Of a stretch of DNA of 64,000 nucleotides, positions 23,122 to 41,102 are shown in pieces (the stretch's first letter is position 1; the number at the start of each line of letters is the position of its first letter). The DNA is taken from NCBI GenBank assembly GCA_963752595.1, contig CAVVYZ010000015.1, positions 128,001-192,000 of the forward strand, read 5' to 3'. Below the pieces are notes generated by a model, which was not told the origin of the DNA, ran no database searches, and saw only the letters and a program-made list of their open reading frames with translations. This DNA comes from an uncultured delta proteobacterium (GTDB taxonomy: Bacteria; Desulfobacterota; Desulfomonilia; UBA1062). The translations under genes were made by a program, and so were the position numbers.

Positions 23122-24991
23122 ATGGCGAATCAGATTTTGGATGAAAGGGATCAGCGGTTCATCTTGTATGAGATGCTGGGGGTGGAGAAACTCTGTGGGT
23201 ATGAGAAGTATCGGGATTTCTCCAAGGACATGTTCGACATGATCCTCACCGAAGCGCAGAAGATGGCGGTGGATGAAGTTCTTCCCACCCTGGCCGAAGG
23301 AGACAAGGAAGGCTGTACGCTGAGCGACGGAAAGGTTTCTGTCCCGAAATGCTACCATCGCGCGTATCAGCTTTTCCGTGAGGGCGGCTGGATCGGGACG
23401 AATTTTCCTCCTGAAGAAGGTGGCCAGGGCCTGCCGGACAGCGTGAAGATTGCAGCCATCGACTGGTTCTACCATAACTTTGCCTTTTCTGCGTATCCGT
23501 TCGCGACCGAGGGAGCTGCGCACCTCATCCTGACCTACGGCACGGAAGCGCAGAAGAGAAAGTATATGGACAAGATGGTTCAGGGCATCTGGGGCGGAAC
23601 CATGGCACTGACCGAGCCCAATGCCGGATCCGATCTCGGCAATATGATTACCAAGGCGATACGTCAGCCGGACGGAACCTTCAGGATTCAGGGCACTAAA
23701 ATATTCATTACCGCAGGCGACAATGATCTGGTGGAAAATATTGTCCACCCCGTGCTTGCCAGGATTGAAGGCGATCCGGCCGGCACGAAGGGCATTTCGA
23801 TTTTCCTCGTGCCTAAGTATCTCGTCAACGATGACGGCTCCCTGGGCAGGCGCAATGACTATGAGATCGCCAATATCGAGCACAAGATGGGTATCCGGGG
23901 CAGCGCCACCTGCCTGATCAATTTCGGTGACAACAACAACTGCTATGCCGAACTGCTGGGTGACGAGCGAGAGGGCATGAAGATCATGTTCCAGATGATG
24001 AATGAGGCCCGTCTTGCCGTCGGCCTGCAGGGTCTCTGCAGTGCCTCGATCGCTTATCTCCATGCGCTTCAGTACACTAAAGACAGCCTCCAGGGCTCAT
24101 CACTCATTGAATTCAAAAATCCCAATGCTCCCCGCGTTCCCATCATCCATCACCCGGACGTCCGCAGGATGCTTCTGTGGATGAAATCCACCGTTGACAG
24201 CATGCGTGCCCTTATCTACTTCACTGCCTACTGTTTCGACATGGAAAAAGTTGCGAAGGACGAGGTGGAAAAGGACAAATGGCTTGGCATTCGCAGAGGT
24301 GCTAACCCCCATCGTTAAGGCATATTGCTCCGATATTGGCTTCAGGGTCACCGAGACAGCCATGCAGTGCTACGGCGGGTACGGCTTCTGCTGCGAGTAC
24401 CCTGTGGAGCAGTTCATCCGGGATGAAAAGATCGCATCCATCTATGAAGGGGCCAACGGCATTCAGGCCCTCGACCTCATCGGCCGCAAGCTCGGCATGA
24501 AGAAGGGCGCGTACTTCATGAATCTGCTCGGCGAGATGAATACCACAGTAACAAAATACAAGGACCTGACCGGCAATGCGGACATGGCAGCGGATGTCCA
24601 GAACGCCGTGAATAAACTCGCCGAGATGGGCATGTTCCTTGCCTCCTGCGCTAAGCAGGGCAAGTTCCTTGTGCCTGTCAACAATGCCTATCCCGTTCCT
24701 CATGATGATGGGCAAGGTCGTTTCTGGCTGGTTCCTCCTCTGGCAGGCCGGCGTTGCACAGCAGAAGCTCGATGCGCTGCCAAGGAAAAGGGTATTGACG
24801 AAAAGGACAAGACCGCCATAGCTCAGCTCATGCAAGGAGAACAAGGACGCCGCCTTCTATTCCGGCAAGATATATTCGGCCAGGTTTTTGCCAAGAACGT
24901 ACTGCCCGAGGTCGATGCGGCAGCAGTGGCCATCAAGACTGAAGACATGTCCATTCTGGAGATTCCTGAAGAAAGCTTCTGTTCGTATTAA
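23122..24991 (+). CDS. Acyl-CoA dehydrogenase, ~600 aa type (3' third interrupted by indels)
   Basis: GTMALTEPNAGSD, GTKIFIT, EHKMGIRGSAT, MNEARL, then in another frame TPIVKAY, GGYGF..EYPVEQ, IYEGANGIQALDL. Several frameshifts at about 24290-24890. Confidence 0.9.
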
Positions 24992-25039: not shown

Positions 25040-25412
25040 TAATGTCTCCTTCGGGGATGGTTGAAGGCCCTCGCCTTTAGGCGAAGAGAGGATTATATGT
25101 GTCGCTATGCGACGTTATAGGGTAGGAGCCCACACGAAAACTGACTTAAAGGTGCACCTGGTGTGGGTGCCTAAGTATCGGAAGAAGTTGTTGACCGGAG
25201 AAGTAGCTATTCGAGTAAGGGACCTGCTGAAGCAGATTGCGATTGAACATGAGTTGGAAGTGATATCCGGGAAGGTAGCCAGTGACCGTGACCATGTGCA
25301 CATGTTTATTGGGTATAATCCGAGCCAGGATATCAGCAAGATAGTGCAATGGCTGAAGGGAATAAGTTCCCGGGTAATTAAATCCCTCGCCTTCAAGGCG
25401 AGGGTCGTTTAG
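25040..25412 (+). mobile_element. tnpA: IS200/IS605-family element, internally deleted (truncated Y1 transposase at 25107-25412)
   Basis: HLVWVPKYRK, DHVH (HUH motif), LKGISSR. Matching subterminal hairpins at 25068-25088 (CCCTCGCCTTTAGGCGAAGAG) and 25384-25404 (CCCTCGCCTTCAAGGCGAGGG). The left boundary is approximate. Confidence 0.88.
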
Positions 25413-31355: not shown

Positions 31356-32300
31356 TTATCTGACGTCAAAGCCTTCAAAAAGCCTTTTGCATTGCTCAAC
31401 CAAAGGCACTGCCATCCAGTCTTTCATGGAGTCGGTATGGGAGGCCTCGCTGTGTTGTCCCAGTGTCTCAAGCTTGGAGAGCCAGAGGGGATTGTACGGC
31501 AACAGCTCTACCTTTGCGATGCCCAGTCCTTTGAGAAACCGTGCAATGGAAAGCAGGTTTTCATGCGTTGCCGTAATCCCGGGAACTAGTGGAATCCTCG
31601 GCAGGAGTTCTATTCCTGCATCGATGCAAGCCCTGCTGAGATCTGCAAAATTCTTCAGGATTCTGGTATTCGAAACGCCGCAGTAGCGTTTGTGCTCTTC
31701 CGCGCCAAAGAGCTTGATGTCATAGTAAATAATATCAAGGTATGGGGAGAGAGACGTAAGAAACCTCTCATAGTCAAAGAGCCCGCAGGTTTCCAGCAGG
31801 GTGCTGATTCCCATGGCTTTTGCCCTTTGCAGGAATCTGGATGCAAAATCCATATACAGCGTGGGCTCGCCTCCCGAGAGGGTGATCCCTCCACCGGAGG
31901 CCTGGAAGAAGGGAAGGTCTTTTTCAATTTCGAACATGAGTTCATCAAGGCCCCAGAACCTGCCGACCTGTGATAAGGCACCGCCCGGACAGGCATCCGT
32001 ACATTTCATGCACAGGGTACAAGCCTCCCTGTCGATAAAACAGGTATAGTTCCGGTCCAATGCCTTCTCGGTGCAGGCAGCGATACATGACCCACACCCG
32101 ATGCACTTTTCCTTGTCAAAGGAGAGCTCGATCTTAGCCTTCTTGCTCTCGGGATTATGGCACCACAAACAATCAAGGGGACATCCCTTGAAAAATATGA
32201 CGGTTCTGATCCCGGGGCCGTCATCCAGAGAATTGCCTTTTACCTCGAAAAGGAGTCCGTTATCTTGAGATCCCAAGGATTTCTCTTCGACCATCCTCAT
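31356..32300 (-). CDS. Glycyl-radical enzyme activating enzyme (radical SAM with 2x[4Fe-4S] insert)
   Basis: DGPGIRTVIFFKGCPLDCLWCHNPES, CIGCGSC..C and CTLCMKC..C, LSGGEP; start overlaps the GRE stop codon. Confidence 0.95.
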   Translation of the reverse strand: MRMVEEKSLGSQDNGLLFEVKGNSLDDGPGIRTVIFFKGCPLDCLWCHNPESKKAKIELSFDKEKCIGCGSCIAACTEKALDRNYTCFIDREACTLCMKCTDACPGGALSQVGRFWGLDELMFEIEKDLPFFQASGGGITLSGGEPTLYMDFASRFLQRAKAMGISTLLETCGLFDYERFLTSLSPYLDIIYYDIKLFGAEEHKRYCGVSNTRILKNFADLSRACIDAGIELLPRIPLVPGITATHENLLSIARFLKGLGIAKVELLPYNPLWLSKLETLGQHSEASHTDSMKDWMAVPLVEQCKRLFEGFDVR

Positions 32301-35260
32301 ATGCCGAATTCCGCCCTTTCAATCAATTCCATCTGCATGTCCCTGTTCAGAGTCACAAAGTAGGCGTTATATCCGGATATGCGGACGAGCAGATTCTGGT
32401 AGTTTTCCGGATGTTCCATGGCGTCTCTGAGTGTTTTGGAAGAGACGACATTCAGCTGCATCTGCATGCCGCCGAGATCGCTGTATGTTTTCACGTATGA
32501 ATAGATGTTATCCACGGCTTTCTGATGCGTCTCATTCGCGAGGCACGACTTTCACGTTAAAGGCGATATTGTTGTTCATGTTTTTCGGTTCCAGTCTGGC
32601 GACATCGCGGATGTTGTCCAGAATGCTCTTGGAGGCGTGCGGTTCGGGCGTCAGTCCCGGCGTAAAGGCTTTGCCGGCCAGCCTTCCCGAAGGAAGCGCT
32701 CCGGTCAGGGTGCCGAAAGCGACATGATTGGACATGGACCAGAACCCTGCCGTATATTTGCCGCCGCGGTAATTGATATGTTCCCAGAAACAGTCATGGG
32801 CAAGTTTTGTCACGCGGTTGGCTGTTGCCAGAGCTTCCTCGTTGCCGGAGCCGAACAGCGAGGCCTTGTTTTTTATCAAGGCCAGCAGGGCAGGGGTTGT
32901 TTTCAAAATTGGTGTTGACGGCATCCAGCAGTTCGCTAAAAGTTAACTTTCTTCTCTTCAAAGACAAGTTTTTTAATGACCATCAGCGAATCGGTGATAT
33001 CGGCAAGGCCGATACAGGCAGTGCCGGATGAGTTGTAAAGAGCGCCGCCTTTGGTAACGTCCTTGCCCTTTTTCAGCGGGCCTTCGATCAGGGCGGAGAT
33101 AAAAGGAGTCGGGCGGATGGCCTGATGAGCCTCACCCAGAAGATTATTGTATTCACAGGTCTGATCAGCCAGAGAAACGAAGCTGTGTGGCGAAAGCGTT
33201 GAAGAACGATTCGTAATCCTTAAAGTCTCCGGCCTTGATATCGCCGGTTTTCGGCCCCAGATCCCAGCGCATCAAGGGATGCCTGCCGTTGTTGAGAGCC
33301 ATTTCGAGCGCCGCCACCATGTTGAACATCATGCAGTTGGTGTGGCCGATATGGCGGCCGGAAAGGGTCGGCTCCACACAGCCGGTTGCCGACCAGTCCC
33401 GCAGATGCTCCGGCGGGATAATTGAATTCCGCGAGTGATGCCATGACAGCCTCGTCATTGTGGATCGAAGGAGTGGCGGTGGTATTCAAATTGACTTCGC
33501 AAAGCCGTTTCAGATATGTGGCGCTGTTTTTTCCCTATTGTAACGGGCATTGACGTTGGGGTCGCGGATGGAGAGCATTTCCGTGATTTTCAGAAAGATA
33601 TAAGTCATATCATTGACCGCGTCTTCGCCTTCCGGCGTCACGCCGCCCAGGGTGATGGCCTGATCGGAGGAACTGCCGCCGAACAGATAGTTGCCGATGT
33701 CCGGTATCAAAGGCAGATGATCTGTGCAGCGCATGTAAAAACAGCCGATCAGTTCGATGGCGTGCTTTATATATGTTTCCTTCTTCTGCTTTATCACTGA
33801 TTTTTTCCATGTCGGCTGAAAAATAAGGCTGAAGCCACTGATCCAGCCGTCCCAGCGAAAATCCGGCGTTGGTGTTTTCCATGTGCACGCCGACCCAGAT
33901 TATCCACATGGCGTTAACGGCTTCATCGAGCGTCGTGCAGGGATTCTCCGGAACATTCCGGCAGATACCGGCAAGACGCTGAAGCTCTTCTTTGCGAACG
34001 GGATCAGTTTCATTCGACGCCTCAGTCGCAGCCTTTCTAGAAAGGTTTTCCGCGTAAGTGATGAGTCCTTCGAACAGATAATCATTGCTTCAAGGGTATC
34101 TTTCTGTTCAGTCTGATCGGCGTGCCCGTCCCTGGCAAGCTCTTCTCTGATTTCCCGGATAATCCCCTTCGCCCCCAGCCTTAATAGCTTGGGGTAATCG
34201 AGGATAGTGTGGGACAGAGCGAGCAGTCTTCCAGAGAAAATAGACGGCAAAGCGGTCATCAAGGCTCTGGCAGAGCGGCTTACTGTAGAATCTCTCACCC
34301 ATTCCTTGAAGTTCCGCCTTGTCCAGAAGGGAAACACGGTGTGATGGAGGATTTCTCTGGTATCATCGCTGATATCGTAGGGAAAGAGCCGCCGGTAGGG
34401 GGTCGTAAGAGTTCACCCCAGATCATGGTTCCATGGGAATCGGGGTAAAGGACCACACCGATCTCATTTGTCGTGGTGGTTCCTGCGATGAGGTCATTTT
34501 TTCTGATAATGGGCTTCCTGTTCTCCATGAGATGCTTGAATGCATTTGCCTGCCTGAGCTCGGGAACCCATGGCTTGCCGTCCTTCTTTGTTTCGAATCC
34601 ATTGTTCCTGAACCATTGGGTGAGCAGCAACGGGCGTTCATGGCAGATGACAGGCTTTACCGTAAAATGGATGTCGAGGAATCTTTGGAGCCGGGGAAAA
34701 TCCTTCAGGGAGTAGTGAGAAAGATAGGGATCATCCTTGAGGTACAATACGCCGGGATCAATTGTGTCTCCCTTGAGCTGTTTATTTTCGCCCCTTGCCG
34801 GAGACGGGTTCGCTCCTATCCCGGAGCAGGAAACTGCCGGACTTTCCTGTCCCTGGCTTTTCATCATCTCGATCTGCTTGCCTTTTACGAACAGCGAGAT
34901 GAAAAAATTGAAGAGCTGGGCATACACGAGGTTTCCCTTCACGATCAGCTTGTTCTTGAGGATGAGGTTGAGCACCTCGTTCGGAGGCAGTGAGGCCAGG
35001 TCCTTCAATATGGATGTGTCGAGAAATACCATCTCGGTATCGACGTCTGCAGGTATCTTTCCGGAAACATTGACCTTGCCGTCCCGGAATGATATGCACT
35101 GCTCCACATCCCCTTTTTCCGTACGAAGCCCTATCGAGAAATTGAACCGGCCGTCATCCGTGCACAGATATTCTTTGAATTTGGGCAGGTAGTTAAAAGA
35201 AAATGCCATGGCCTGCAGCGCCAAATGCGTCGCAATATTTGCCATATTCCCCTTGAACAT
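32297..35260 (-). CDS. Glycyl-radical enzyme (GCVE eliminase type) with an N-terminal SCP2-like domain; ~990 aa reconstructed across about ten indels
   Basis: Start at ATG 35260 after AGGAGG. Fragments give ICHERP, LIAG, FSLGRLDQ, ITLGG, AVNDMTY, GCVEP (33369-33383), GLAD, ALPSGR, QLNVV, LLVRISGY (32369-32383). Confidence 0.88.
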
Positions 35261-35368
35261 AGACACCTCCTGTTTTCTCCAGGGGCACAATGCCTGAGAA
35301 TGTATCAGGCCTTCATTTTTCCCCCTGGCCTCATGCCACGAGTAAAGAAGCCCTTTTGGACCGAAGGA

Positions 35369-36064
35369 TCACCCTGTATTACTTATCATTTCAGGTGTTA
35401 TCTTCGGCTGAATGCCTTCACATCCGTCTCCTGCGATAACCGGTTTCAGGAGATCACGGGCAACCTGCTCGATGATCTGCTCCGGATTATCGTCTACCTC
35501 GGGGAGGACCCTGCTGTTGTAGAGAGCAATGATTCCATGAAGGGTGCTCCAGAGCTTTATGACGAAGTAGCGTGTTTGATCCGGGGGCATGCATTTTGTC
35601 ATGCTGATCACGTCCTGAAGCGCCCTCGAAGTGATGTCAATGAGTTTCAGCGCAGTCTGTTTCTCGAAGAATGCCACGGGCTCGATCTCTGTGCCGACAT
35701 AGTCCCGGTATTTTGGGGCATCGGAGGTGAACATGATATTGTAGTAGTGGGCCTTGTTTATCCCGAAATCGATGTATGCCCTCACCATATCCTGGAGCTT
35801 GCGGGCCGGGTCGCAGGCAGATTCATAAATACCGGCAAACCGCTGGTAAAGCATATCGAAACCTTTGGTAAGAATCATGAGATAGAGTTCGTCTTTGTTC
35901 GAATAATAGTTGTAAATGGTTGTTGCAGTCATACCCAGGCGGGAGGCGAGCTTTCTCATACTGAAGGAAGTGAATCCGTGCTCTGAGATAAGAGCGAGAG
36001 CTTCATCAAGAATTTTTTCCCTGATAAGTTCTCTGTCTTCTTGACTCCGAGGTATCTTTGGCAT
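35369..36064 (-). CDS. TetR/AcrR family transcriptional regulator
   Basis: ILDEALALISEHGF..FSMRKLASRLGMTATTIYNYYSNKDEL; C-terminal LWSTLHG (WHG-like). Confidence 0.93.
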   Translation of the reverse strand: MPKIPRSQEDRELIREKILDEALALISEHGFTSFSMRKLASRLGMTATTIYNYYSNKDELYLMILTKGFDMLYQRFAGIYESACDPARKLQDMVRAYIDFGINKAHYYNIMFTSDAPKYRDYVGTEIEPVAFFEKQTALKLIDITSRALQDVISMTKCMPPDQTRYFVIKLWSTLHGIIALYNSRVLPEVDDNPEQIIEQVARDLLKPVIAGDGCEGIQPKITPEMISNTG

Positions 36065-36080
36065 ATATATCCTTTAAAGA

Positions 36081-36134
36081 ATAACACTGTTAAGATAACA
36101 TTGTTATATTAACCTCGGCACTTAAGGATGTCAA
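36081..36134 (-). promoter_or_regulatory. tetR-GRE promoter with tandem palindromic operators
   Basis: Minus-strand TTGACA(36134)-N17-TAATAT(36106). Palindromes TAACA-C-TGTTA (36082-36092) and ATAACA-T-TGTTAT (36095-36107). Confidence 0.7.
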
Positions 36135-36308
36135 GGAATGTATTGATACGGATTTTGGGTTATAAAGAGCAGAGCTGTAATGCATGGGAAGATGATATCC
36201 CTTTCACTCCGGAGAAAGGGCTGAATGCACCGAAACCTCTTGGGGAAAAGGCTGGATTGAACGGATCGCAACACACTTGTCCATCTGCAATAAACAAAAG
36301 GAGGGCAC

Positions 36309-38298
36309 ATGAATCGAGGATATATGGGAAAGATCCTGATGGTCGACCTCGCAACAGGATTCCGGGAAGAGACGATCCCCGATGAGGTCTATGAGAAGTA
36401 CCTTTCAGGGCTGGGCCTTGCAGCATACCTCCTGTACGACCGGATACCTGCAGGCGCCGATCCGCTGGGACCGGATAATATACTCGGATTCGTTTCCGGG
36501 CTTCTGACGGGGACCGGCAGCCTCTTTTGCCGGCAGGTGGATGGTGGTGGGAAAGTCTCCGCTCACCGGCGGCTGGGGCGATGCCAATTGCGGCGGCTCC
36601 TTCTCTCCTGCCATCAAGCGTTGCGGCTATGACGGGATATTCTTTACCGGGATCAGCGAAAAGCCGGTCTTTCTTTATATCAAGAATGGTAAGGTCGAGC
36701 TCAGGGATGCTGCATCCCTCTGGGGCAAAGATACCATCGGAGACAGAAGAGATCCTGCAGGAGGAATACGGTGAAGGACGCCCGGGTGGCGGTAATCGGC
36801 CCTGCGGGAGAAAGACTCTCCTTGATCTCGGGGATCATGCAATGACAAGGGAAGGCTTGCAGCCAGATCAGGTCTCGGTGCGGTCATGGGTTCAAAACGG
36901 CTCAAGGCAGTGGTGCTCGACGGAAAGAAACGGATCGGTCTCCATATCGGGATGAAGTGCAGAAACTGAGCAAGACATGCAACAAGTGGGTACAGTTCCA
37001 GCTTCCCCTCGGTCCGGGCATCGGCGTGGGATTCCTGGGCACCCTACTGAGGGTTCTGCCGACTGCCATGGCACATGGACGGCTTGATTTACAAGATGAT
37101 CCTAAGGCAATGGGGCACCGGGGGTTGAACCAGATGTCTCCCGAATGGGGTGATTCTCCCATCAAGAACTGGAAGGGGAGCAATGTCGACTGGCCCATGA
37201 AAAGGTCGAAATCCGCCAGATCCGGACCGCATCAAGAAATATGCGAAGCAGAAGTACCACTGCTACTCCTGTCCTCTCGGGATGCGGAGGGAACTGCTCA
37301 ATACCGGCAAGTACAGCGAGACGCACAAGCCCGAGTACGAGTCGGTCCTCGCCCTGGGCGGGCTTTGCATGAACGAGGATACGGACAGCCTCTTCTATCT
37401 CAACGAAATGCTGAACCGGGCGGGAATGGATACCATCTCGGCAGGCGCCACCGTGGCCTTTGCCATGGAATGCTACGAAAAGGGCATCCTCACAAAGGAA
37501 GATACCGGACGGCATCGATCTGTACCTGGGGCAATGCGAGCGGGATAATCGCACTGATTCACAAGATGATAAACCGGGAAGGGATCGGAGATATCCTTGC
37601 GGACGGCTCCAAGGTGGCATGCAGGAGAAGATCGGCAAGGGAGCAGAAAAATATGCCGTCCACGCAGGCGGCCAGGAACCGGCCATGCATGACGGCAGGC
37701 ATGGACCCGGGCTTTGCCGTACATTATTCGGTGGAACCCACCCCCGGCCGGCATACCATCGGTTCCCAGCTCTATTATGAGATGTTCCAGCTCTGGAAAA
37801 AGGTCAAGGGGTTGCCGAAGAAATGGCCGTTCCAGATCTACCACAAGAACAGCAGGTATACGGCGCATCACAGAGCAGGCCCGTGAAGCTGCTGCGTGCA
37901 GCAAATACATGAACGTGGTGAACGGTGCGGGTATCTGCATGTTCGGTGCCTTCCTCGGTATCACGAGAACCCCCACATTCGACTGGCTCAATGCGGTCAC
38001 AGGCTGGAATAAGACCCCGAAGAGTACATGGAGATCGGCGAGCGGATCCAGACGATGAAGCAGGCATTCAACATCAAGCATGGGATAGAGCCGAAGAGCG
38101 AACAAGCTGAGCGACGTGCACTCGGAAGGGGCCGCTCGCATGCAGGGCGCCAACAAAGGCAGGACGGTTCTCATCGAAAAGATGATGAGCGATTACTGGG
38201 ACCAGTTCGGATGGGACCCTGTCAACCGGCAAACCTACCCCGGAATGTCTGGCACGTCTTGGGATAGAAGCTTGATAGTAAAGCTAAAGGGAGGATGA
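36309..38298 (+). CDS. Aldehyde:ferredoxin oxidoreductase family (W/Mo), reconstructed across multiple indels
   Basis: GYMGKILMVDL, ADPLGPDNIL, KSPLTGGWGDANCGG, GYDG, GAVMGSKRLKA, PEYES, GMDTISAG, REGIGDILADG. The 3' end is approximate. Confidence 0.88.
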
Positions 38299-38732
38299 CG
38301 ATGCCTTTCACGATTACACAGGCATGTAACGGGTGCCAGGCATGTAGGAGGATTTGCCCCGCAGATGCAATCTCAGGTGAAAAGAAAAAACTCATACCAT
38401 CGACGGACACGGTATGCATAGAATGCGGTGCATGCGGCAGGATATGTCCCCAACAGGCCGATCCTGGATGGCTCGGGAAAGGCATGTACGCATGGTCAAA
38501 CGTTCCCAGTGGAAGAACCCGCAGTTCGAGGATGAAGACCTGCATGTCGTGCACCATCTGCATCGATGCCTGCCCGGTGAACTGTCTTGCCCTTACGGAA
38601 GCAAATAAGGCAAGGGACCTGCATGGGTATCCGTACCTGAAGGATGAGAAGGCCTGCATCGGATGCGGATTCTGTGCAGCCGAGTGCCCGGTGGATGCGA
38701 TTAGCCATGAGACCCTTGCCCAAGGAGGCTAA
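38295..38732 (+). CDS. Polyferredoxin with four CxxCxxCxxxCP motifs
   Basis: CNGCQACRRICP, CIECGACGRICP, CMSCTICIDACP, CIGCGFCAAECP; directly follows the AOR gene after a GGGAGG RBS. Confidence 0.88.
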   Translation: MTMPFTITQACNGCQACRRICPADAISGEKKKLIPSTDTVCIECGACGRICPQQADPGWLGKGMYAWSNVPSGRTRSSRMKTCMSCTICIDACPVNCLALTEANKARDLHGYPYLKDEKACIGCGFCAAECPVDAISHETLAQGG

Positions 38733-38819
38733 GCTCCATGAAACCGTGGAAAGAGGCCGCATAACAGTATGCGGGGCATGTCTGATTGAAGTGCCCCGGT
38801 CTTCACCTGGTGCATTTCG

Positions 38820-39603
38820 TCAGAACATGATTGCGGTGAGGAAGTAGTCGGCAATAAGGATGCAGACCGAAGATATGACGACCGAGTATGGTGGTGGAAT
38901 TGCCGACACCTTCGGCACCGCCGCTCGGTGCTGTATCCTTTGTAGCATCCCACCAATGACAGGATGAACCCGAAGAAGGTCGCCTTTGCCAGCCCGTGTG
39001 AAAAGATCCGAGATAGTATGACATAATCGACGATCCGGGCCATGAAGATTCCCTCATCGATGTGCGAGGAGCTCGACCCCCACCAGATAGGACCCGAAAA
39101 CGCCGAATGCTGTCGAAGAGAGGGTGAGCATGGGCATCATGACGATCGTGGCAATGATCCGGGGAATGACGAGGTACTGAAAGGGGTTGACCCCCATGAC
39201 GGTCAAGGGCGTCAACCTGTTCGGTTACCCGCATGGTGCCGATCTCGGCGGTCATGGCAGATCCGGCCCGGGCAGTTACCATGAGGGATGCGAGCACCGG
39301 GCCCAGTTCTCTGAACAGCCCGAGCGTAGTGGTGGACCCGACCAGGGATTCCGCCCCGAAGAGGCTGAACCCATGATGGGTCTGCAGTGCGCTCACCATC
39401 CCGGTGAACATGCCGGTGAGCAGTACAACTGCTGGTCGGACCGCATCCCGATGAACTCCATCTGCTTGAAGAACTGCTTCAAGAACACGGGAGGCCTGAT
39501 CAGCCAGTAGATCATGTCTGATAGATAGAAGAGTGCAGATGCGCCAACCTGTTCAAGAGAATGAAATGGTCAGCCTGTCCGATGATATGCGAAACATCTT
39601 CAT
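38820..39603 (-). CDS. mlaE: MlaE family ABC transporter permease (frameshifted)
   Basis: FTGMV, RELGPVLASLMVTARAGSAMTAEIGTMRVTEQVDAL, KATFFG, GCYKGY, GAEGVG spread over several frames. Confidence 0.85.
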
Positions 39604-39613
39604 TTGTTCCCAG

Positions 39614-41102
<1,489 letters not shown>

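Follow-up and report, generated by a model that had tools for sequence, protein, structure and literature searches.

What reaction is catalysed by a glycyl radical enzyme (GRE) that carries a lipid-type domain and is encoded divergently from an aldehyde:ferredoxin oxidoreductase (AOR)? The question is raised by a locus within 64,000 nucleotides of DNA from an uncultured delta proteobacterium of the Desulfomonilia (GenBank assembly GCA_963752595.1, contig CAVVYZ010000015.1, positions 128,001 to 192,000; this whole stretch is referred to as the window). Open reading frames (ORFs) and profile matches in the window place genes for an activase, the GRE and a TetR-family repressor leftward, and genes for the AOR and a four-cluster ferredoxin rightward. 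All five genes were recovered by profile matches and motifs in the order and orientation claimed in an initial annotation. The GRE, an oxygen-sensitive radical enzyme, represents an uncharacterised subfamily whose domain architecture and pocket are new and which is tied to one particular AOR subfamily. We favour, with moderate confidence, a reading in which the polar head group of a long-chain lipid undergoes radical 1,2-elimination, giving a fatty aldehyde that the AOR would convert to the acid.

A glycyl radical enzyme fused to an SCP2-like domain

The GRE gene (32297..35257, minus strand) encodes approximately 987 amino acids when read through 11 indels, and PF02901 was matched in all five of the ORF pieces tested. 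The product is 80% identical to an intact 986-aa relative, P0002, whose residue numbers are used here, and has no in-frame stop. Residues 1 to ~130 (34868..35257, minus strand) are predicted to fold like SCP2. With a model of this domain built from 75 sequences (predicted local distance difference test, pLDDT, 89.6), Foldseek returned UbiJ-SCP2 first (E 6e-7), followed by the alkylsulfatase and sterol-carrier SCP2 domains; the ten best VIA-align matches (Z 9.0-11.4) were all SCP2 folds, and Atlas SCP2 clusters matched the N-terminal domain at 0.92. The lipid-type domain proposed earlier is thus upheld by structure prediction, though neither PF02036 nor any other Pfam family matched it in the window ORF or in the precomputed domains of 120 listed relatives. 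The domain is predicted to serve as a lipid carrier. Four distant loci (L169, L170, L171, L178) have a separate SCP2-like gene of ~150 aa between the GRE core and the activase, so the GRE-SCP2 pairing has been kept in two forms; a DUF6765 gene adjoins this split form in three of the four. At two other loci (L167:7938-10943, L168:6692-9694), a molybdopterin enzyme resembling pyrogallol transhydroxylase carries a fused SCP2-like domain at its N-terminus, and the gene for an Fe-S subunit comes next.

Intact SCP2-fused GREs (SCP2-GREs) of ~990 aa are widespread. A search with the N-terminal ORF found 711 longer proteins, of which the best 120 were nearly all ~990 aa. In a one-genome-per-species collection, relatives of P0002 are encoded in 375 stretches; the best 80, at 60-100% identity, carry the labels Desulfomonilia, other Deltaproteobacteria, Smithella, Desulfosudaceae, Leptospirales, Spirochaetota and gut or rumen Bacillota (Mogibacterium, Lachnospiraceae and Oscillospiraceae among them). 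The distribution is patchy (two of 151 genomes in the family of genome G353), with enrichment in Smithella and Desulfomonilia records. Two relatives, P0186 and P0205, lack the catalytic Cys and Gly loops and are probably inactive copies. The window's own genome also carries two ordinary GREs and a diverged SCP2-GRE paralogue on contig C1 (G000:C1:74082-78740). This paralogue and that of L060 have an altered pocket and no adjoining activase, and are followed by a group II pyridoxal phosphate (PLP) decarboxylase. The possibility that a sphingosine-1-phosphate (S1P) lyase stands beside the paralogous GRE was rejected, as the PLP enzyme of L060 matched only amino-acid decarboxylases.

Catalytic core and substrate pocket

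The P0002 model (pLDDT 86) has a target TM-score of ~0.9 to GRE eliminase folds and matches propanediol dehydratase (PD), glycerol dehydratase (GD), HypD, PFL2 and CutC about equally (24-30% identity). Together, the model and the window's motifs show the ten-stranded barrel of the GRE fold with its Gly and Cys loops. The RISGY glycyl radical loop (32369..32383, minus strand; G962) and the Cys-Val-Glu catalytic loop (GCVEP; 33372..33380, minus strand; C627-V628-E629) were both read from the sequence; the former is invariant in alignment A1 and the latter in all 94 aligned relatives, the set over which invariance is given below. Sections 5.6-5.7 of a 2026 GRE review describe the CXE motif as common to GRE eliminases and isomerases, and the review has GD His164 protonating the leaving hydroxyl (PMC13450708). 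His351 aligns with that residue, and CutC has Asp there. The retained loop and dehydratase His agree with the eliminase-type GRE that was originally proposed.

Beyond this His, the GD and PD pocket is not kept. In sequence alignments, His281/Ser282 of GD correspond to Ala465/Gly466, Tyr336/Tyr339 to Ser529/Asp532, Asp447 to Asn641 and Tyr640/Ser642 to Trp839/Met841, and the mapped residues are invariant in the relatives and also across the main clade. We take His281, Ser282, Asp447 and Tyr640 to have substrate-pocket roles in GD, and an Asp and a Phe presumably hold the trimethylammonium group in CutC. The position of Asp532 is occupied by Phe, Tyr or Trp in GD, PD, CutC, HpyG and IseG. These differences suggest a wider pocket with a new acidic group, which may fit a bulky substrate and possibly an amine. 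The small pocket residues and the predicted SCP2 fold also point to the hydrophobic substrate that the initial annotation had envisaged.

The activase gene (31356..32300, minus strand) is intact, with no frameshifts, and its start overlaps the GRE stop. It encodes a radical S-adenosylmethionine protein (TIGR02494, 279 bits against a cut-off of 174) with one CxxxCxxC motif and two extra ferredoxin-type cluster motifs. Its score lies under the cut-off of every activity-specific model, and far under that of BssD.

Comparison with characterised enzymes

The closest known systems share features of the core. GD (1R8W) and PD (5I2A/5I2G, 9RCO) have the same fold (target TM ~0.9, 27-30% identity), the Cys-Val-Glu loop, a His at the His164 position and a ferredoxin-containing activase. 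The SCP2-GRE differs from both in ~190 extra N-terminal residues that include the SCP2 domain, from GD in the seven pocket replacements listed above, and from both again in having AOR and ferredoxin as partners. No bacterial microcompartment shell gene was found in the window's own genome, which is 84% complete, in agreement with the absence noted at the outset. CutC (5FAU, 9F3W) likewise shares the fold, the CXE loop, a Thr 13 residues after the Cys and, if the lipid reading holds, an aldehyde product, but the SCP2-GRE has His for the CutC Asp and Asp for the CutC Phe, and reaches 392 bits with TIGR04394 against a cut-off of 1050. HypD, HpfG/HpsG, IslA/IseG, HpyG/HpzG, HplG and YbiW/PflD are alike in eliminase or isomerase type and in CXE, whereas every equivalog model gave at most 410 bits against cut-offs of 1000-1150 and none of their PDB chains aligns to residues 1-180. 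All activity-specific NCBIfam models (HypD, HpfG, HpsG, IAD, HPAD, PFL) stayed under half of their cut-offs. Archaeoglobus fulgidus PFL2 (2F3O) ties for the best sequence match and likewise has the His, Met at 841 and no aromatic residue in the place of Asp532, but it is 30% identical and has no SCP2 domain. The X-succinate synthases BssA and MasD are the lowest-ranking GRE matches and are not close in sequence to the SCP2-GRE.

The AOR (36309..38275, plus strand) matches PF02730 (AFOR_N) and PF01314 (AFOR_C) in pieces, across 18 indels, and is 83% identical to an intact 653-aa relative, with no stop; its best PDB match is 1aor. With tungsten AORs (Pyrococcus 1AOR; bacterial 9G7J, 9MQX, 8C0Z) it shares both domains and a ferredoxin partner, whereas its sequence places it in a distinct subfamily of ~650 aa. 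Other AORs of the same genome, also in pieces, share just 26-47% identity with it. The polyferredoxin gene (38295..38732, plus strand) is an open frame with four CxxCxxCxxxCP [4Fe-4S] motifs. UbiJ, the alkylsulfatase SdsA1 and MFE-2 likewise have an SCP2 fold on a catalytic or pathway protein; that of the window is fused to a radical enzyme, and its lipid binding is predicted.

With ~30% identity at best and no equivalog cut-off reached, the enzyme has no characterised GRE counterpart, as had been thought. It appears to work like a diol dehydratase or CutC, yet to be a member of no characterised activity. The part of the 2026 review that was available lists eliminases for small soluble substrates only, and names neither a lipid-acting eliminase nor an SCP2 fusion (PMC13450708). 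No published description of the SCP2-GRE family was found in the literature searched, which comprised neither subscription papers nor supplements, where a GRE network might include it.

Genomic partners of the enzyme

Gene context was counted with tblastn markers in the best 80 loci, of which 46 have at least 3 kb on both sides. Activase was found in 65 of the 80, TetR in 48, AOR in 21, ferredoxin in 16, a KDSR-like short-chain dehydrogenase/reductase (SDR) in 20 and an extended SDR in 15. The family as a whole thus does not keep AOR as a neighbour, and 17 of the 21 loci that have it belong to a single syntenic block shared by close relatives. Among the 46 loci with full flanks, 17 have AOR and 13 the KDSR-like SDR, and none has both. 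Outside the block, an AOR 69% identical to that of the block directly follows the GRE in L051, and others lie a few genes away in L059 (66%), L065 (46%) and L123 (49%); in L118, L128 and L126 the AOR after the GRE is of a different clade (27-28%). AOR-linked loci fall on separate branches and in differing gene orders (FastTree only, without P0186, P0205 and cores of <600 aa; the tree served only for this placement).

Co-occurrence links the two enzymes beyond adjacency. The window's AOR subfamily (called at E <1e-110) is present in 21 of 46 GRE-carrying genomes, including 12 of 24 gut Bacillota, and in one of 149 GRE-lacking genomes of a control family. In that single genome, the AOR and ferredoxin directly precede an HpfG-like diol-dehydratase GRE. 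An AOR of any kind was found in 21 of the 24 GRE-carrying gut Bacillota versus 44 of the 149 controls. These counts ignore kinship and compare several GRE-carrying families with one control family. They support a functional tie between the SCP2-GRE and this AOR subfamily. The GRE-AOR module of the initial annotation thus gains from co-occurrence and from independent arrangements, whereas adjacency is limited and 20 of the 80 loci carry an SDR instead.

AOR together with an alcohol dehydrogenase is the usual way of disposing of an aldehyde. The annotation had noted no alcohol dehydrogenase partner, and none was found in the window's locus; in other genomes, however, iron alcohol dehydrogenase (Fe-ADH) genes accompany the AOR subfamily, occurring in 10 of 20 loci around its unlinked copies. 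The AOR loci of seven gut genomes (L309, L311, L312, L314, L315, L317, L318) form an operon with Fe-ADH, a D-aminoacylase-like amidohydrolase, a flavin ene-reductase-SDR fusion and a tocopherol-cyclase-like protein; each of the last three genes was within the locus in six genomes, or seven counting k3-k5 as clustered.

Among the recurring neighbours of the GRE are FadL-type porins, acyl-CoA ligases, esterases and lipid-type SDRs. The FadL porins lie upstream in three loci, all from the same genus; around most gut-bacterial loci there are no lipid genes. The acid had been assigned to acyl-CoA ligases near the window's locus. That assignment is qualified by their synteny in close relatives only and by their position beyond two convergent genes, although in two relatives an ADP-forming ligase gene does stand behind the operator described below and a TetR of the same family. 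The neighbouring glpK is also syntenic in close relatives only.

Several further features of the neighbourhoods were seen. An AF_1327-family membrane protein gene lies near the GRE in two unrelated lineages (L052, L053, L055, L124, L129), and the activase has been lost from the locus in the close relatives L080, L088, L090, L095 and L133, in one of which it is relocated with the operator. Split transketolase, MaoC, phytoene-desaturase-like and zinc alcohol dehydrogenase neighbours occur in single or few loci. A short ORF at 25107-25412 of the window may be a truncated IS200-type transposase.

Leads towards sphingolipids

The KDSR-like SDR raises the possibility of a sphingolipid connection. 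One member of one of the ten SDR clusters looked up carries the source label '3-dehydrosphinganine reductase', and we take the SDR motifs to resemble those of KDSR. TSC10 (8jat) aligned over 5-244 of the SDR profile at a rank of ~49th of 261 PDB matches, and the NCBIfam KdsR model gave 129 against a cut-off of 400. The SDR was not found at high score in the window's own genome or in four close relatives. PF00282 was absent from three of five genomes tested, all three of them SDR carriers, so these have no S1P lyase of that family. The search for PF00282 extended to ten genomes and also yielded matches.

Of 61 relatives, 10 gave ceramidase matches, as did 21 of the 46 GRE-carrying genomes. Among ten ceramidase loci that were inspected, none has the GRE or the operator; one stands beside a TetR of the GRE-locus family, and one lies 6.6 kb from the AOR subfamily. 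In L271 (59-8980), a cluster of an FGGY kinase, a class III aminotransferase and a RuBisCO-like protein, seen also in L241 (12855-18685), comes after a TetR of the GRE-locus family whose gene diverges from one for a full-length neutral ceramidase. Two genes of this cluster have close homologues at the start of G000:C17 in the window's own genome.

Regulation of the locus

The tetR gene (35369..36064, minus strand; PF00440 and PF13305) is intact and heads the leftward operon; 244 bases separate its start codon from that of the AOR. Upstream of it lies a candidate tandem palindromic operator, TAACRNYGTTA-N3-TAACRNYGTTA (36082..36106, unstranded), proposed from shuffles and conservation. The tandem form had no match in 100 shuffles, at least one half-site precedes 51 of 62 adjacent tetR genes across phyla, and the tandem site occurs in 28 of 61 genomes, mostly once, as against six for the reversed control. 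A sigma-70-like promoter of tetR-GRE-activase (36106..36134, minus strand; TTGACA, 17 nt, TAATAT) abuts the operator. This promoter pattern is weak alone (seven sites found, 6.8 expected); most relatives have a TTGAC box immediately upstream of the operator, and the displaced activase of L233 keeps the operator.

The initial annotation had both gene sets start from a shared intergenic region. Within it, the operator overlies the promoter of tetR-GRE at a distance of ~200 bp from the AOR start, and no second tandem site was found in the window's own genome. The AOR is therefore not placed under the TetR repressor. In a regulon search with the tandem operator, nearly all good matches precede tetR genes of the same family, which front GRE paralogues, the displaced activase, the ADP-forming ligase or unrelated genes; matches with three mismatches were at control level, and the regulon points to no substrate. 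A second conserved operon (L236, L237, L240, L243) has a TetR of the same family, a glyoxalase-type protein, a KDSR-like SDR, a DUF362 protein and often a split transketolase. A split transketolase also follows the GRE in L173.

Proposed reaction and alternatives

By analogy with GD, PD and CutC, the activase would place the radical on Gly962, Cys627 would abstract a hydrogen from the terminal carbinol, Glu629 would deprotonate the carbinol hydroxyl, and the group on the next carbon would leave with the assistance of His351. The leaving group would be water if the substrate is a 1,2-diol, such as an alkanediol or a 1-O-alkylglycerol, and ammonia if Asp532 holds a sphingoid base, with the lipid chain running past the small residues Ala465, Gly466 and Ser529 towards the SCP2 domain. 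The AOR would then oxidise the fatty aldehyde and pass electrons to the polyferredoxin, and the acid would be activated with CoA for beta-oxidation, or the aldehyde reduced by Fe-ADH. The TetR protein would likely repress its own operon until a lipid inducer binds.

Within this reading, we judge a terminal diol or glyceryl ether to be the leading candidate, somewhat above even chances, a sphingoid base to hold a substantial minority share and a steroid or hopanoid polyol side chain a small remainder. The diol or ether is favoured by His351, by the aldehyde-handling partners and by the HpfG-like exception among the control genomes. The sphingoid base is favoured by Asp532, the label of the SDR, the recurring amide hydrolases and the two loose ceramidase neighbours; it is weakened by the low PDB and NCBIfam support for the SDR, by the failure to find a high-scoring SDR or a ceramidase in the window's own genome and by the missing PF00282 genes in the three SDR carriers. 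That the whole family is a dedicated, oxygen-free sphingoid-base lyase or dehydratase, independent of S1P lyase, producing fatty aldehydes and reducing ferredoxin through the co-travelling AOR, is a possibility that we regard as doubtful.

Several observations weigh against elimination on a lipid head group with AOR as partner. The pocket was assigned from sequence alignments and not from coordinates, model confidence is low (pLDDT <50) for residues 523-531 and 842-852, and GD Asp447 is replaced. The available DNA of 59 of the 80 loci has no AOR, the AOR subfamily is missing from 25 of the 46 GRE-carrying genomes (drafts), and the co-occurrence counts include related genomes and draw all their controls from one family. 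The AOR start has no operator near it. A ketone would suit the SDR pair of Smithella-type loci as readily as an aldehyde would. As regards the sphingoid option, searches for a neutral ceramidase found none in the window's own genome or in 9 of 11 same-genus genomes, and a strong match occurred in only one of the 24 gut Bacillota. Sequence would not by itself identify the substrate or decide between a diol and a sphingoid base.

The ketone just mentioned is the basis of an alternative that we consider unlikely: the GRE may dehydrate an internal vicinal diol, for instance at C3-C4 of phytosphingosine, to 3-ketosphinganine, which the KDSR-like SDR would reduce, with the AOR acting on a later aldehyde. 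The downstream position of the SDR and its failure ever to accompany AOR in fully flanked loci fit this scheme, as do its single '3-dehydrosphinganine reductase' label, a His351 suited to hydroxyl loss, an invariant Asp532 that could hold the neighbouring amine and the amide hydrolases that recur near the AOR subfamily. The low rank of TSC10, the sub-threshold KdsR score, the lack of a high-scoring SDR in the window's genome and its four close relatives and the missing PF00282 genes speak against it.

It is rather improbable that the substrate is small and soluble and that the SCP2 domain is a mere membrane anchor or regulator. Eis-type acetyltransferases, which are not lipid enzymes, and a molybdopterin enzyme also carry SCP2 folds, AORs take many aldehydes, and the scarcity of lipid genes around most gut-bacterial loci is consistent with such a substrate. 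However, where the pocket of solved enzymes has an aromatic residue or His, that of the SCP2-GRE has small residues, the family is enriched in Smithella and Desulfomonilia records, and its recurring neighbours include FadL porins, acyl-CoA ligases, esterases and lipid-type SDRs.

We give little probability to an ether lyase that would take a hydrogen from C2 of a 1-O-alkylglycerol, or of the corresponding phosphate, and thereby release a fatty alcohol, with Fe-ADH and AOR carrying this alcohol to the acid. YbiW and PflD cleave a C-O ether bond by such chemistry, according to the review sections available (PMC13450708), but they score below the diol dehydratases. The frequent pairing of the AOR subfamily with Fe-ADH and a YhhN gene (lysoplasmalogenase family) near one AOR copy would suit the scheme, and the invariant Lys345, His639 and His844 could bind phosphate; against these stand the lack of an alcohol dehydrogenase in the window's locus and a glpK that adjoins it in close relatives only. 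Finally, a hydroalkylase that adds fumarate to alkanes or lipids, an activity proposed for Archaeoglobus PFL2, is highly improbable: PFL2 (2f3o) is among the top sequence matches and its function is debated between dehydratase and alkylsuccinate synthase in the consulted part of the review (PMC13450708), but MasD and BssA reach 212 and 193 bits against 379, the CXE Glu is retained and no small-subunit genes were seen in the loci among ORFs of at least 100 aa.

Integrity of the window's copy

Relative to intact relatives, the window has 11 frameshifts in the GRE, 18 in the AOR, five in mlaE and 10 in glpK, 44 in total, with no in-frame stop over ~2,380 aligned codons. Twelve other ORFs of the same alignment, tetR among them, have none. 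The frameshifted stretch spans ~32.3-41.1 kb, and the broken genes are 0.76-0.85 identical to the relative, like most intact neighbours. The indels are patchy, affecting mlaE and glpK (38800-41100) and also an acyl-CoA dehydrogenase gene (23122-24991); genes on other contigs of the same genome are likewise frameshifted, and the low-depth contig of a relative differs by four indels in one frameshifted AOR stretch. Indels unaccompanied by nonsense changes indicate assembly error rather than decay, and the indels are probably assembly errors. We see only a slight chance that the frameshifts are real and this copy, as distinct from the family, is dead. The concentration of 11 and 18 indels in GRE and AOR, yet none in the tetR between them, would fit a dead copy, and the GRE indels are without read coverage (one DNA run, share 0.10); the missing nonsense codons, the undiminished identity, the equally affected glpK and mlaE, and the frameshifts on other contigs and in the relative argue otherwise.

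The GRE gene is also a mosaic. From about residue 440, its product is 84-99% identical to Smithella-type proteins, and DNA tiles at 32401-34000 are 85-88% identical to Smithella-type loci versus 69-78% to the closest syntenic relative. Both flanks of this Smithella-like segment, placed by nucleotide and amino-acid identity at approximately 32350..33950 (minus strand), match the syntenic relative best. The mosaic would have arisen by recombination between family members or, alternatively, as a chimeric consensus; the contamination estimate of the genome is 6.8%. Both halves keep the same invariant residues, so the functional reading is unchanged.

Possible implications for anaerobic lipid degradation

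If the lipid reading is true, radical elimination would reach lipids through a family that is conserved at 60-80% identity in several phyla and has a predicted lipid-carrier domain of its own. Anaerobes could in this way clear diol, ether or amino-alcohol head groups that stand in the way of beta-oxidation. With intact relatives, an AOR partner, a TetR-operator pair suited to inducer screening and a short list of substrates, this reading is directly testable. The known route from a sphingoid base to a fatty aldehyde passes through S1P lyase, according to the available part of one source (PMC11765627), and a GRE route from sphingoid bases would bypass that enzyme. Should the sphingoid route hold, anaerobes of sediments, digesters and the rumen would degrade the long-chain bases of plant, fungal and bacterial sphingolipids by this means.

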